Below are positions 50,623-55,037 of a stretch of DNA of 64,000 nt, one piece after another. Each line of letters starts with the position of its first letter. Positions within the stretch are counted from its first letter, which is position 1. A model generated the notes under the pieces. The model saw nothing but the letters and a program-made list of their open reading frames with translations, searched no databases and was not told the DNA's origin. This stretch comes from a virus: positions 40,872-104,871 of the IMG/VR virus record IMGVR_UViG_3300008111_000005; one strand, 5' to 3'. The position numbers and the translations under genes were made by a program.

Positions 50623-51393
50623 TTATGGACCAACAAATACTGGTTGGTCACTATGTGGTGTGGTATTATCTGTATGAGCAGCGGGAGTAGTGTTATCGGT
50701 GTGTGCAGCCGGTGTGGTATTATCCGTATGAGCAGCGGGAGTAGTGTTATCGGTGTGCGCAGCCGGTGTGGTATTATCCGTATGTGCTGCTGGAGTCGTA
50801 TTGTCCGTATGTGCTGCATTGATAGTAGTATTTGTGTGTGCCGCGGCAATGTCTGTGTGGCTGGTAGCAATGTCTGTGTGACTCGCTGGTGTGGTATTGT
50901 CCGTATGTGCTGCGTTGGTAGTATTATCCGTGTGTGATGCGTTAATAGTGGTATCAGTATGTGCTGCTGGCGTGGTGTTGTCGGTGTGTGCAATGTTAGT
51001 GTGGGATGTAGCAATATCAGTATGAGATGTTGCTATATTCGTGTGGGATGTTGCGATGTCGGTATGCGCAGCATTCGTAGTGTTGTCTGTATGTGATGCG
51101 TTAATAGTGGTGTTAGCAAACGCAATATTCGTGTGTGAATTTCCAGTGTAATTGTCTGTGTGCGCAGCTGCGATATTAGTATGCGATGCAGCAACATTGG
51201 AATGTGGTGTAGTGCTGTTACTAAACGCAATATTACTGTGTGCAATATCGGAATGTGAAGATATTGTCGCAATATTACTATGCGCAATATCTGTATGTGC
51301 TGACGACGCAGCGGCATTACCGTGTGCGATATTTGTATGTGATCCAGCCACATTGCTATGACCGCCGGGAGAATAACTATCGGAATGTGCCAT
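50623..51393 (-). CDS. His-x-Asp/Asn repeat protein (256 aa)
   Basis: about 31 H-[TSG]-[DN] motifs plus 2 F-x-N motifs; the protein is almost entirely repeat. Confidence 0.85.
   Translation of the reverse strand: MAHSDSYSPGGHSNVAGSHTNIAHGNAAASSAHTDIAHSNIATISSHSDIAHSNIAFSNSTTPHSNVAASHTNIAAAHTDNYTGNSHTNIAFANTTINASHTDNTTNAAHTDIATSHTNIATSHTDIATSHTNIAHTDNTTPAAHTDTTINASHTDNTTNAAHTDNTTPASHTDIATSHTDIAAAHTNTTINAAHTDNTTPAAHTDNTTPAAHTDNTTPAAHTDNTTPAAHTDNTTPAAHTDNTTPHSDQPVFVGP
50657..50812 (-). repeat. 27-bp coding tandem repeat (HTDNTTPAA, about 6 copies)
   Basis: near-identical 27-nt units with mostly synonymous variation. Confidence 0.8.
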
Positions 51394-51410
51394 AAAATAT
51401 TATTCCTGAA

Positions 51411-52571
51411 TTATGAGCAGAGTTCGTTGGTACCACCACATACTTGATAATTAGAACACGCTAGGTAATAAAAACAACCCGAACATGTAACCAAATTGAT
51501 ACCATCACATACACTAGTACCATCGGTGCAACAATAATTATTTGTATGAGAGGCATTTGCCGTACTGTCTTGGTGGGATATTGAAGTATTAGTGAATGCA
51601 ATATTATTATGCGCAATATCAGAATGTGAAGATATCGCCGCAATATTACTATGTGCTATATCCGTATGTGCGGAAGAAGCTGCAATGTTACTATGCGCAA
51701 TATTAGTATGTGCCGCAGCGATATTTGAAAAGTTTGTAGTACTATCCGTATGACCTATTGATGTATTCGTATGTGCTGCGTTGGTAGTACTATCCGTGTG
51801 TGCGATATTTGTATGTGAATTTGGTATATAACTGTTTGTATGTGCAGCAGGTATTGTACTATCGGTATGCGGAATTGTGGTATTCGTGTGTGGTATTGTG
51901 GTGTTGGTATGTGGAACTGTGGTATTGACGAACGCAATATTTGTGTGAGCTGCTGGTGTGGTATTGTCCGTATGTGCTGCATTGATAGTAGTATTTGTAT
52001 GTGCTGCGTTGATAGTAGTATCTGTATGTGCTGCTGGTATCGTAGTATTTGTGTGAGGAATAGTGGTATTTGTGTGTGGAGTTGTATTATCTGTATGTGA
52101 TGATGGTGTGGTGTTATCTGTATGTGCAGCAATCGTGGTATTGTCTGTGTGTGCAGCAATTGTTGTATTATCGGTGTGTGCAGCAATCGTGGTATTATCG
52201 GTGTGTGCTGCGTTGATAGTAATATCAGTATGTGCTGCTGGAGTGGTGTTATCGGTGTGTGCCGCAGTTACGTCGGTGTGACCACGAATTTCACTACCTG
52301 TACCAGAAATCCAATGCCAAAAAGTACTTTCAACCCACACAGAACCAGCCTTTGCACCTGCCGCAGCACCTAAGTTTGTATATGCAATTGTACGGTCAAC
52401 CCCTGTAGCGGAGATATAATGGAAATCATTTCCATCTACCCACACCGATCCAGGTTTAGCTCCCGCTGGTGATGTACCGGCGGTACCAGTATAATAATAT
52501 TCATTTCCCGAGCCGTCTATGAAACGAAACGTTTCACCATCAACCCAGATACTACCAGGTGCCTTTGGCAT
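51411..52571 (-). CDS. His-x-Asp/Asn repeat protein with N-terminal GS(I/V)WV repeats and Cys-rich tip (386 aa)
   Basis: three PGS(I/V)WVD-type repeats, about 30 HxD/N plus 3 FxN motifs, 8-Cys C-terminus. Confidence 0.85.
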   Translation of the reverse strand: MPKAPGSIWVDGETFRFIDGSGNEYYYTGTAGTSPAGAKPGSVWVDGNDFHYISATGVDRTIAYTNLGAAAGAKAGSVWVESTFWHWISGTGSEIRGHTDVTAAHTDNTTPAAHTDITINAAHTDNTTIAAHTDNTTIAAHTDNTTIAAHTDNTTPSSHTDNTTPHTNTTIPHTNTTIPAAHTDTTINAAHTNTTINAAHTDNTTPAAHTNIAFVNTTVPHTNTTIPHTNTTIPHTDSTIPAAHTNSYIPNSHTNIAHTDSTTNAAHTNTSIGHTDSTTNFSNIAAAHTNIAHSNIAASSAHTDIAHSNIAAISSHSDIAHNNIAFTNTSISHQDSTANASHTNNYCCTDGTSVCDGINLVTCSGCFYYLACSNYQVCGGTNELCS

Positions 52572-52603
52572 ATATTAAAATCTCCACATAACGATAACTT
52601 TCA

Positions 52604-52611
52604 TATAAATA
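52604..52611 (-). promoter_or_regulatory. TATTTATA candidate late promoter
   Basis: 32 bp upstream of ATG 52571. Confidence 0.5.
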
Positions 52612-52614
52612 GAG

Positions 52615-53478
52615 TTATACACAAGTAAATGTTCCTAAACAACCAACTGGCCGTGCTGCACATACTACTGCGTAGACACTACTATTGGGATTTGTATAAA
52701 AATTTGACCCAGATGATGGACTACCATCGGCACAAGTTACATATCCTGCGGGACACGATGCATCCACACCACGAGTTCCTTGTGGACCTGTTGGTCCTTG
52801 TACACCAGTAATTCCCTGTACTCCAGCCGACCCCGTGGATGCCGCTGGTGCAGAAATACCTGTAACTCCTACAACACCCGTTGCTCCTTGTGGTCCCGAT
52901 GGTCCTGTTGCACCCGCTGTGGGTAATCCTACAACACCACCTACACCCGTAGCACCCACCACGTTTGTTAATCCCGATGGTCCTGTTTGTCCAATAATTC
53001 CTGTTATACCAAGAATTCCTTGAATACCTGTTGCACCTGTTGGTCCTGTTGCACCCGTTGCGCCTGTTGACCCAGACACTAGTGAACCGATACCTGTAGC
53101 ACCCGTTGGTCCTGTAATACCAATAGACCCCGATGCTCCTGTTGGCCCTGTTGGTCCCGTAGACCCAGTAACACCAGTTGGTCCAATAACTCCTGTTGGC
53201 CCTGTTGGTCCTAGTGGTCCTGTTGGTCCAGTTGGACCTGAGGTAGTTAATCCCGTTACCCCAGATACTCCTGTTGGTCCAGTAGACCCAGACCCAGCTA
53301 TACCTACCAAACCAATTGGACCTGTTGGACCTCTATCACCTATAACTCCTGTTGCACCAGGTCCATATGATGCGGTTAATACATTTACTCCCGCAGCGTA
53401 TGTTGCAGTAAATGCTAAATTACTATATAATGCAACGCTTGCAGTAGTTGGTGTACCAAGTGGAAAAAATGTGGTCAT
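52615..53478 (-). CDS. collagen-like fibre protein with Cys-rich C-terminus
   Basis: G-X-T triplets (GPT, GAT, GVT); five C-terminal Cys. Confidence 0.85.
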
Positions 53479-55037
53479 AGGAATGCGTTACTGTGAGCGG
53501 CAGCGACATTTGAATGTGCTGCGGTGATATTGGAGAAATTGGTGGTATTGTCTGTATGTGCGGCGGTAATATCCGTGTGTGCTGCGGTTATATCCGTGTG
53601 TGCTGCTGCAATGTTACTATGTGCAATATTTGTGTGTGCTGCTGCAACATTTGAAAATGCGATGTTACTGTGTGCGATATCAGTATGTGATGCGTTGGTA
53701 GTATTATCAGAATGTGATCCTGGTGTAGTACTATCAGTAAATGGAATATCGGTATGTGACGACGGTGTAGTACTATTTACGAATGCCGCATCGGTATGCA
53801 CACCTATTATATCACTGTGATCATTAAATGGACTACATGGTGTACCAGATGGACAAGAAGAATATCCGAAATAAAATAAACATCCAGGCCCCGCATCACC
53901 ATCTAAACAATAAACACCAGTCGCTGCATCATCACCATGCCCGATTGTACTGTCCGAATGTGGTTGATCAGTATGTGAGGCCGGCGTGGTACTAGATATT
54001 GCCGCAATATTAGTATGTTCTGTGTTAATAGTAGTATTTGTGTGTGCTGCGTTAATAGTACTGGAACTTCCCGCAATATTTCCGTGTGAAATATTTGAAT
54101 GTGGTGTGGTACTAGTAATTCCAGCAATATTGGTATGTGCTGTATAATTGTTTGTGTGTGGTATTGTGATATTTGTAAAGTTTGTAGTACTGTCGGTGTG
54201 TGCTGCAGTAATATTAGAATGTGGTGTAGTACTATCACTATGTGGGACCGTAATATCGGAATGTGTTTGATTACATGATCCCGTGACGAAAAATGCAGCT
54301 CTTCCCGCAGCACCTTGTGGTCCTGTTGGACCGACTGGCCCAGAAGGACCGGTAATACCTGTAACACCAGCGGAACCGAAGGTATTAGGACCACTAATAC
54401 CCTGTGAACCTGCTGCACCCGTTGCTCCTGTTGGTCCTACTGGTCCTGTTGCTCCAGCACTACCAGATGGACCGATTGGCCCCGTAGAACCAACTGGCCC
54501 CACACCTGTTGGTCCTGTACTACCTTGTGGTCCTGTTGGACCTGTTGAACCTGTTGGTCCAGTTGCTCCAGCAACACCCGCTACACCACCAAATATACCA
54601 ACACTACCTGTTGGACCTGTTGCACCAATTGCCCCTGTTGGACCTGTTATACCTCGACTACCTGTTGGTCCCGTAACACCGATTACACCAGTGCTACCAG
54701 TTGGACCTGTTGGACCCGTGGGGCCTGTAGATCCTGTGATGCCACTTGGTCCAGTTGGACCTGTTGACCCAGATGTTTGTGGTCCAGTTGATCCTGTGGG
54801 TCCAGTTATACCGATAGAGCCGGACACGCCAGTTGGACCTGTTGGACCTGTTGGCCCCGTTGCTCCTGTTGGTCCTAGTGGTCCTGATGGTCCTGTAAAT
54901 CCACCTATAGCGAACGATGCAGTAGCATATCCAGACCCACTATTTACCGCAACTGACGCTGTAAACGTCAGTACACTTGCAGATAATGCGAATGAACTAG
55001 TAGTTGGTGTTCCGTATGGGAAAAACTTAAACGTCAT
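53475..55037 (-). CDS. collagen-like protein fused to His-x-Asp/Asn repeats
   Basis: about 200 aa of G-X-Y, then about 26 HxD/N plus several FxD/N motifs with a 4-Cys insert. Confidence 0.85.

Follow-up and report, generated by a model that had tools for sequence, protein, structure and literature searches.

The closest described relatives of the system analysed here are the triceptides, in which radical SAM enzymes join an aromatic residue to the C-beta of a second residue; the known links run from Phe-C4 to Asn, from Trp to Asn or Asp, from Tyr-C3 to Asp and from His-C2 to Ala, Arg or Lys (PMC11002830). HtkB, a His-specific triceptide enzyme, also converts H1F and H1W variants (PMC11499958). 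Histidine repeats occur in the HXS antiphage system, whose HxsA protein carries His-x-Ser repeats that HxsB and HxsC, both radical SAM enzymes, mature (PMC13128918). A radical SAM module of Thermus phages has been described with two of its proteins left without a function; DNA modification was speculated, and histidine repeats go unmentioned (PMC11437467; Viruses 2024). Here we analyse a 64,000-nucleotide stretch of viral DNA (the window; positions 40,872 to 104,871 of IMG/VR record IMGVR_UViG_3300008111_000005), in which three proteins, p256, p386 and p520, carry long arrays of His/Phe-x-Asp/Asn triplets beside a gene for a radical SAM/SPASM enzyme. The source viral contig is 104.9 kb long, with an estimated completeness of about 55%, and a literature search found no paper describing these arrays.

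We propose that the neighbouring enzyme forms a three-residue cyclophane at each triplet, a reading to which we give about an even chance. A wider claim is more tentative, namely that phage-encoded radical SAM enzymes staple virion fibre proteins, each at some tens to about a hundred sites of the His/Phe/Tyr-x-Asp/Asn type, and so yield a rigid fibre without a conventional fold. Repeat grammar, aromatic replacement at position 1, coupling of positions 1 and 3, gene linkage and enzyme class were established by the analysis; that the enzyme modifies the arrays, which bond it makes and what this does to the fibre are inferred.

Triplet arrays with aromatic residues at position 1

We tabulated every [H/F]-x-[D/N] triplet in the p256, p386 and p520 arrays, which together hold 87 H-x-D/N and 10–11 F-x-N/D motifs. 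The Phe motifs are FSN and FAN in p256; FVN, FSN and FTN in p386; and FTN, FVN, FTD, FSN and FSN in p520, with a further FND at the edge of its Cys-rich insert. A first-pass annotation of the window had counted about ten F-x-N/D motifs in the register of H-x-N/D, and the contexts that it quoted (IAFSN, IAFAN, IAFVN, IAFTN and IPFTD) are all present. It had gone on to propose that position 1 needs an aromatic ring and not a metal ligand, a proposal that three comparisons with homologous arrays support.

The first is a blind tiling of arrays from close relatives (loci L004–L008, with enzymes 82–86% identical to the window enzyme), in which only His motifs served as anchors, every longer gap was divided by linkers 2, 4 or 6 residues long and D/N was maximised at position 3 while position 1 was ignored. 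Phe occupied the embedded position 1 in 175 of 183 slots; those without Phe belong to degenerate triplets or to Cys-rich inserts. In aligned orthologues, 23 motif-start columns mix His and Phe, 40 hold His only and 10 Phe only; the T-P-[H/F]-x-N-T-T-I-N context, for example, swaps the two residues across phages. Exchange of His (CAY) for Phe (TTY) takes two base changes, and no in-register Tyr or Leu intermediates were seen in the close clade.

Family-wide, we compared the residue at −2 of each Asp or Asn with its background frequency in 104 homologous arrays (11,973 residues; 2,853 D/N sites). Observed-to-expected ratios were 4.05 for His, 2.19 for Phe, 1.74 for Tyr and 1.24 for Trp, against 0.22 for pooled Leu, Ile, Val and Met and 0.14–0.57 for every other residue. 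The Phe and Tyr peak is confined to offset −2, the other offsets from −5 to +5 giving 0.7–1.4, and Trp is not specific. Replacement takes place within running arrays, as in H-T-D-T-Y-S-D-T-H-G-D. Free substitution by non-aromatic residues was thus not seen, all of them standing at or below 0.57. His, Phe and Tyr, with Trp weakly, are the only enriched residues at position 1, and the aromatic reading holds throughout the family; His appears to be the default, with Phe used in the window lineage and Tyr in others.

Positions 1 and 3 are coupled. The close clade contains 141 F-x-N and 0 F-x-D triplets beside 160 H-x-D and 148 H-x-N (P = 6e-35), F-x-N making up 31% of units, and across the family Asn is preferred over Asp more strongly by Phe and Tyr than by His (P = 2e-10 and 2e-7). 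Position 2 varies freely across the family, and Ser is not enriched at position 3. A target at position 2, such as the Ser or Cys of anSME substrates, was rejected because of this free variation.

These counts bear on an explanation in which a trimeric fibre binds metal through the His and Asp of its arrays, with Phe-x-Asn triplets as non-binding fillers and a different target for the enzyme. Both residues are standard ligands, and the distant arrays are almost purely H-x-D. The His-x-His iron sites at the tip of the T4 long tail fibre offer a precedent, p520 joins its array to a collagen-like and hence trimeric domain, and the absence of Phe–Asp pairs from the close clade fits avoidance of an unpartnered carboxylate. 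Set against this, Asn, a poor ligand, ends 37 of the 87 His motifs in the window, nearly a third of close-clade units are F-x-N, and Phe and Asn variants cannot bind metal. Across the family His gives way to Phe and Tyr alone, not to the ligands Asp, Glu or Cys; spacers of 0 to 12 residues are unlike a regular metal ladder; and the near-perfect linkage to the enzyme described below would be left unexplained. We consider metal binding unlikely, and we rejected a His-x-His metal ladder as a family assignment on finding 0 H-x-H triplets in the three window arrays and no match of p256 among PDB sequences.

Two further features of the arrays were observed. Many units contain N-x-T/S tripeptides (for example at 50657–50814, with D-N-T-T, H-T-N-T-T and F-S-N-S-T), and the glycosylation-type sequon thereby includes the motif Asn or the next Asn. 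The arrays also share a conserved tail, H-[ST]-D-Q-P-V-[FL]-V-G-[PA] (50623–50652 and homologues), with variants of the form H-x-D-Q/E-P-x-x-V/G in gp13 of Thermus phage Cumys and, among 149 distant representatives, in at least 25; this tail could be a processing or docking signal.

Even spacing is a property of one clade

Spacers measure 2, 4 or 6 residues in 32 of 32 cases in p256 and in 32 of 32 in p386, giving unit lengths of only 5, 7 and 9, so the first-pass annotation was right that every linker in these two proteins is even (IA, IATS and NTTPAA among them). Over the three proteins, 90 of the 93 non-zero spacers have an even length. The exceptions, of 9, 11 and 11 residues, all fall in p520 and resolve as a linker, a degenerate triplet and a second linker (IA-GIT-STTP, IA-GSS-STINAA and IA-AIS-STTPAS); in the degenerate triplets GIT, GSS and AIS, positions 1 and 3 are lost jointly and the register is kept. 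The arrays are not recent copies, because their repeat DNA has diverged (tandem repeats matched 60–93%, mostly 75–89%), their synonymous codons are mixed (both His, both Asp and both Asn codons are in use) and their linkers are diverse (48 distinct sequences among the 90 even spacers). A binomial P of 3e-23 for even spacing overstates independence, as units descend from one another. Parity in the window in effect reflects about three inherited even linker modules, an IA type of 2 residues, an xTTx type of 4 and an optional AA/AS/TS extension of 2, which have diverged in sequence and rarely in length, single-codon insertions and deletions being rare.

The same annotation had taken even spacers to suggest an extended beta-strand register, and this part of its reading fails. 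Parity is very strict in the close clade (L004, L006 and L007), with 432 even and 3 odd spacers over about 100 different linker sequences. The sister clade (L009–L013; enzyme 75% identical), although of the same architecture, uses spacers of 3, 4 and 6 residues and has 222 even and 43 odd, 36 of the latter being 3 residues long. In Cumys gp13 (enzyme 46% identical) spacers of 0, 1, 2 and 3 residues occur 9, 21, 15 and 5 times, and lengths of 0, 1 and 2 predominate both in 91 arrays from cluster representatives and in 19 distinct viral arrays from domain-seeded loci. We therefore rejected parity as a family-wide rule, the sister clade and distant homologues having odd spacers. The even-spacer rule is real but restricted to the clade whose enzymes are at least 82% identical, it does not speak for a beta register, and linker length would lie outside the enzyme's code. 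An AlphaFold2 model of the p386 array (26-sequence alignment) has a predicted local distance difference test (pLDDT) score of about 40 and no secondary structure. Moreover, three residues and an even spacer add up to an odd period, which would put successive motifs on opposite faces of a strand and not in one register.

These results also address a purely structural grammar, in which the motifs would form aromatic and Asn ladders of an enzyme-free beta-solenoid or extended beta-ribbon. The strictness of close-clade parity across so many linkers favours it, as do runs of 5-residue units in relatives, which give sub-threshold Pentapeptide_2 matches (22.4 bits against a cut-off of 26.4). The disordered array model, the loss of parity in relatives with the same architecture and enzyme, and the alternation of strand faces, which leaves no single ladder, all run counter to it; nor do the window proteins match any Pfam repeat family. 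We regard this explanation as improbable. Pentapeptide repeats as such were rejected, the window proteins giving no match even at E ≤ 1 and the relatives only the sub-threshold score.

Arrays are linked to radical SAM and DUF483 genes

Gene linkage supports enzymatic modification of the arrays. A search seeded with the window enzyme recovered 22 viral loci, most with arrays immediately upstream, including every locus in which the enzyme is at least 75% identical and upstream DNA is retained. Seeding with the N-terminal domain of p386 gave 36 further loci, 24 with arrays and 12 without. An enzyme homologue (29–56% identical) is present in 23 of the 24 array loci, the exception being an array gene at the end of its contig, whereas among the 12 array-free loci, one of them truncated, a radical SAM gene was found in 1 of the 11 others, as a weak 24% match (Fisher P = 8e-8 for co-occurrence; near-duplicates leave about 19 array and about 10 non-array loci distinct). 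The enzyme usually starts within tens of bases of the array gene stop. Homologues of a DUF483 protein, the third conserved member of the module, stand next to the enzyme wherever enough DNA is present.

Homologues of the module lie near deazapurine DNA-modification genes in some cyanobacteria (PMC11437467), which would fit a radical SAM/DUF483 module that modifies DNA and lies near the arrays by chance. That study does not note the His-x-Asp protein, however, and array and enzyme occur together in 23 of 23 informative array loci against 1 of 11 array-free ones. The enzyme, moreover, falls in a peptide- or protein-modifying SPASM class, and several of the enzymes themselves end in the substrate motif. 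DNA modification is in our view highly improbable.

Several loci show variations on this arrangement. At L043:7989-10208, a G-S-x-W protein that has a Cys-rich end and no His array adjoins a different radical SAM gene (24% identical); this locus may represent a sister system whose substrate motif differs. Two radical SAM/SPASM genes stand beside the array gene at L051:3810-7260, L054:9130-12045, L063:921-4310 and L022:8001-12857, and in such phages one radical SAM protein is about 650 residues long and may be a fusion. The window enzyme has a C-terminus of the form P-H-A-D-H-T-D-x-T-G-x-Y (49245–49320), that is, with two H-x-D triplets, and p118, a small protein encoded next to it, repeats the module twice. 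H-A-D-H-T-D-type tails are found in all enzymes at least 75% identical; Thermus enzymes have other His/Asp-rich tails, and the 52–56% clade has none.

A modular family of candidate substrates

Across relatives, candidate substrates span 200–870 residues and carry 10–97 motifs, the longest (869 residues) being in L009. The N-terminal domain of p386 was modelled by AlphaFold2 as all-beta (pLDDT about 90), and its G-S-x-W is invariant in all three hairpins. A profile of this domain retrieved at least 500 representatives of clusters built at 50% identity, and for 247 of these E was 1e-10 or better; arrays occur in 91 of the 149 representatives retrieved, and the rest are mostly short fragments. 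The best fold match of the model is the LLPA bacteriocin (Z 4.4), followed by four other monocot-mannose-lectin folds (Z 2.2–2.9); these three-fold beta-prism II lectins, which include pyocin L1, match too weakly to name the fold. On the model, the domain may bind carbohydrate or act in docking.

Homologues P0004, P0006–P0008 and P0010 have an extra N-terminal segment of about 100 residues (W-T-x-P-R-T-W ... I-R-D-N) before the G-S-x-W domain, and P0005 has a Laminin_G_3 insert. Such extra segments fit modular fibre or adhesin proteins.

An anSME-like enzyme without a leader-binding domain

In the window enzyme the CxxxCxxC motif (C12, C16 and C19) is invariant across 12 homologues, with a Pfam Radical_SAM match at E = 4e-16. 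Eight further Cys of the SPASM region, including a CxxCx5CxxxC motif, are also invariant (C248, C253, C273, C307, C310, C316, C320 and C336). Its PDB sequence matches are led by anSME (6e-11), with the triceptide synthase ChlB next (8e-8), and in Foldseek searches with the predicted fold (mean pLDDT 69) these two alone align over core and SPASM region alike; for sactisynthases and SuiB the match is limited to the core. Partial NCBIfam matches begin with anSME and continue with the cross-link formers DynA, YhhB, AmcB, GrrM/OscB, FxsB and XyeB, with scores against cut-offs of 68/445 bits for YhhB, 64/425 for AmcB, 55/310 for GrrM/OscB, 50/370 for FxsB and 39/450 for XyeB. The enzyme is a member of the anSME-like branch that lacks a leader domain and holds the triceptide synthases, and belongs to no named family.

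This placement leaves room for a different chemistry on the same substrate: a C–N or C–O link, a +8 Da change of the HxsA type, epimerisation or C-beta oxidation, to which the DUF483-methyltransferase protein may add a further step. We rate this group of reactions as possible, if well short of an even chance. Gene linkage supports it as strongly as it does a cyclophane, the nearest relative of the enzyme in structure and sequence, anSME, is an oxidase, and DynA, the second-best NCBIfam match, makes a His-N to Tyr C-beta link as well. The HXS defence system further joins His-x-Ser repeats and radical SAM enzymes to a +8 Da product (PMC13128918). Yet aromatic residues alone at position 1 with Asp or Asn at position 3 suit an aromatic-to-C-beta link better than oxidation or epimerisation, and position 2, being free, is not the target, nor is Ser enriched at position 3.

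A proposed chain of cyclophanes and its implications

Under the cyclophane proposal, the arrays would be multi-site substrates of the co-encoded radical SAM/SPASM enzyme, with a functional unit made of an aromatic residue, any residue, and Asp or Asn. By the triceptide reaction, the enzyme would take a hydrogen off residue 3 at its C-beta, and the resulting radical would add to the ring of residue 1, giving a strained three-residue cyclophane at each of 30–100 sites per protein. A disordered, low-complexity stretch of a tail-fibre-like protein would in this way become stiff and protected from proteases. Replacement by aromatic residues only, coupling of positions 1 and 3, freedom of position 2 and freedom of the spacer all fit triplets that would each be an independent cyclophane site. 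Asp and Asn share a C-beta next to a carbonyl, and His, Phe and Tyr share a ring.

A number of points weigh against this proposal. The candidate substrates, unlike short leader-core peptides, run to hundreds of residues and include domains that are folded or collagen-like, and to our knowledge no such protein-sized substrate has been described for a triceptide synthase. His and Asp are the classic metal ligands, and some arrays, such as that of Thermus phage Cumys, contain H-x-D only. Matches to the named cyclophane families lie far under their curated cut-offs and cover only about residues 11–160, the generic core, while the best match by sequence and by fold, anSME, is not a cross-linker. 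Many of the position-1 and coupling counts come from related repeats and phages, so their P values overstate independence, although the direction is the same in every clade examined. Lastly, the related HxS system yields +8 Da of unknown chemistry, not the −2 Da of a cross-link (PMC13128918).

If correct, the proposal would bring the first cyclophane chemistry of the RiPP type (that of peptides made on the ribosome and modified after translation) on a viral structural protein, and the first on a protein-sized substrate, together with a new His-to-Asp/Asn C-beta link. Radical SAM cyclophane chemistry would then reach beyond small secreted peptides, parts of the particles of phages from hot springs to fresh water would be built with it, and a chain of small rings replacing a fold would be a new type of structural protein. 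The conserved and unexplained radical SAM module of Thermus phages would gain a function, and peptide-stapling biocatalysis a new His/Phe-to-Asp/Asn motif and a natural substrate with dozens of sites per molecule. The grammar guides the choice of variants: position 1 can be set to H, F, Y or A and position 3 to D, N or A, with linker length free.

Genes of the locus

The minus strand holds nearly all long open reading frames of the window (Table 1). The p520 protein matches PHROG 5073 (tail fiber protein; E = 1e-43) over a region that runs from its collagen-like part into the array, which comes second in the protein. The p287 gene sits within the interval of repeat proteins but outside the repeat grammar. 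Upstream, the 1185-residue protein contains many copies of a unit of about 25 residues (V-S-S-S-A-Q-Y-P-G-W-V-T-A-S-S-Q-I-D-Y-N-S-I...) and matches PHROGs labelled structural protein or minor tail protein. The DUF483 gene is kept beside the enzyme in related loci.

Table 1 Features of the array locus, in positions of the window
Feature	Position	Strand	Description
1185-residue repeat protein	57377-60934		Structural or tail-type, rich in repeats
Two small proteins	55816-57362		No assigned function
p243	55053-55784		Collagen-like
p520	53475-55037	-	Collagen-like part and C-terminal array
p520 N-terminal collagen-like (G-x-y) part	54264-55037	-	Pfam Collagen, E 1e-22
p520 array, residues 259-520	53478-54263	-	26 H-x-D/N and 5-6 F motifs
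p520 Cys-rich insert, residues 370-403	53829-53930	-	Splits the array
p287	52615-53478	-	Collagen-like, Cys-rich C-terminus, 0 His, without H-x-D/N array
p287 Cys-rich C-terminus	52615-52760	-	5 Cys
p386	51411-52571	-	N-terminal domain, array and Cys-rich C-terminus
p386 N-terminal domain, residues 1-100	52272-52571	-	Three G-S-x-W beta-hairpin repeats
p386 array, residues 98-344	51540-52280	-	30 H-x-D/N and 3 F-x-N
p386 C-terminal Cys-rich module and stop codon	51411-51539	-	8 Cys; from the translation
p256	50623-51393	-	Pure array, 31 H-x-D/N and 2 F-x-N; H-S-D-Q-P-V-F-V-G-P tail
Radical SAM/SPASM enzyme, 437 residues	49245-50558	-	Directly downstream of p256; Pfam Radical_SAM
p118, small protein	48868-49224	-	The enzyme's H-A-D-H-V-D tail module, twice
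DUF483 (G-Y-P-x-C-C) and class I methyltransferase-like fusion	47377-48849	-	Pfam DUF483, E 1e-5, at cut-off

The three Cys-rich modules differ from one another and are swapped among relatives, one of them opening the protein at L012:1391-1936; they may be disulfide knots or tips. GC skew flips to +0.2 to +0.3 over the arrays (50500–52500), where several long plus-strand open reading frames occur. The minus-strand genes account for both through their His/Thr/Asp/Asn/Ala codon bias, and we rejected the plus-strand frames (for example 50644–50937) as genes, since they follow from repeat composition.

Megablast of the locus against isolated phage genomes gave no match. In Pfam, NCBIfam and PHROGs, p256 matched no family and p386 none beyond noise. 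A word-index search with p256 returned only 3 matches, probably owing to its low complexity, and a comparison with the ESM Atlas gave noise-level scores (0.82). When bacterial genomes were scanned with the N-terminal domain, the pattern step of the scan returned no match.

Comparison with known systems

T4-type fibres (the gp37 tip and gp12) bind metal through His-x-His sites, in which side chains i and i+2 lie on one face. The window arrays, unlike these fibres, lack H-x-H and are irregular, predicted to be disordered and linked to an enzyme.

Among repeat proteins of the His-x-small-residue kind that radical SAM enzymes mature, HxsA of the HXS system comes nearest to the arrays: its repeats are tandem, both His and residue 3 are essential, and the substrate is a protein and not a short peptide (PMC13128918). 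Its chemistry and genes differ: HXS is a bacterial defence system with five repeats in place of 30–100, Ser in place of Asp/Asn and a gain of 8 Da at one site (PMC13128918). Hxs models are absent from the best 25 of 58 NCBIfam matches of the window enzyme, and no HxsD-like gene was seen, the partner here being DUF483.

The cultured Thermus phages Cumys and phiMa have the same order of array protein, radical SAM enzyme (46–47% identical) and DUF483 protein. In Cumys these genes follow baseplate genes and a tail collar fibre gene, in the order gp13, radical SAM, DUF483, and gp13, which carries 54 H-x-D triplets, shares its N-terminal domain and its Q-P-V tail with the window family. The Thermus arrays contain no Phe and no Asn and have spacers of 0–3, whereas those of the window have both residues and spacers of 2, 4 or 6; the window module adds collagen-fused arrays, the methyltransferase fusion and a small protein that mimics the enzyme's tail.

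With the triceptides (made by the synthases XncB, OscB, MscB, YxdB, HaaB, YhhB, HtkB and ChlB) the arrays share the motif of an aromatic residue, any residue and a linked residue. Some triceptide precursors are multi-motif, like the arrays, and a His enzyme tolerates Phe (PMC11499958). Their enzymes resemble anSME, have a SPASM domain and lack a separate domain for recognition, as here; the cluster motif and SPASM Cys of the triceptide enzymes (3-CyFEs) are present in the window enzyme too, and ChlB is its sole full-length cross-linker match in the PDB. His-x-Asp/Asn is not among the characterised triceptide motifs in the cited literature, and triceptide precursors are short leader-core peptides, whereas the candidates here are phage fibre-like proteins with folded or collagen-like fusions. 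The window enzyme lies far under every NCBIfam cut-off, and a DUF483 partner is conserved beside it. Motif logic and enzyme class are thus those of the triceptides, while the residue pairing, the scale, the fibre fusions, the phage origin and the DUF483 partner set the window arrays apart.

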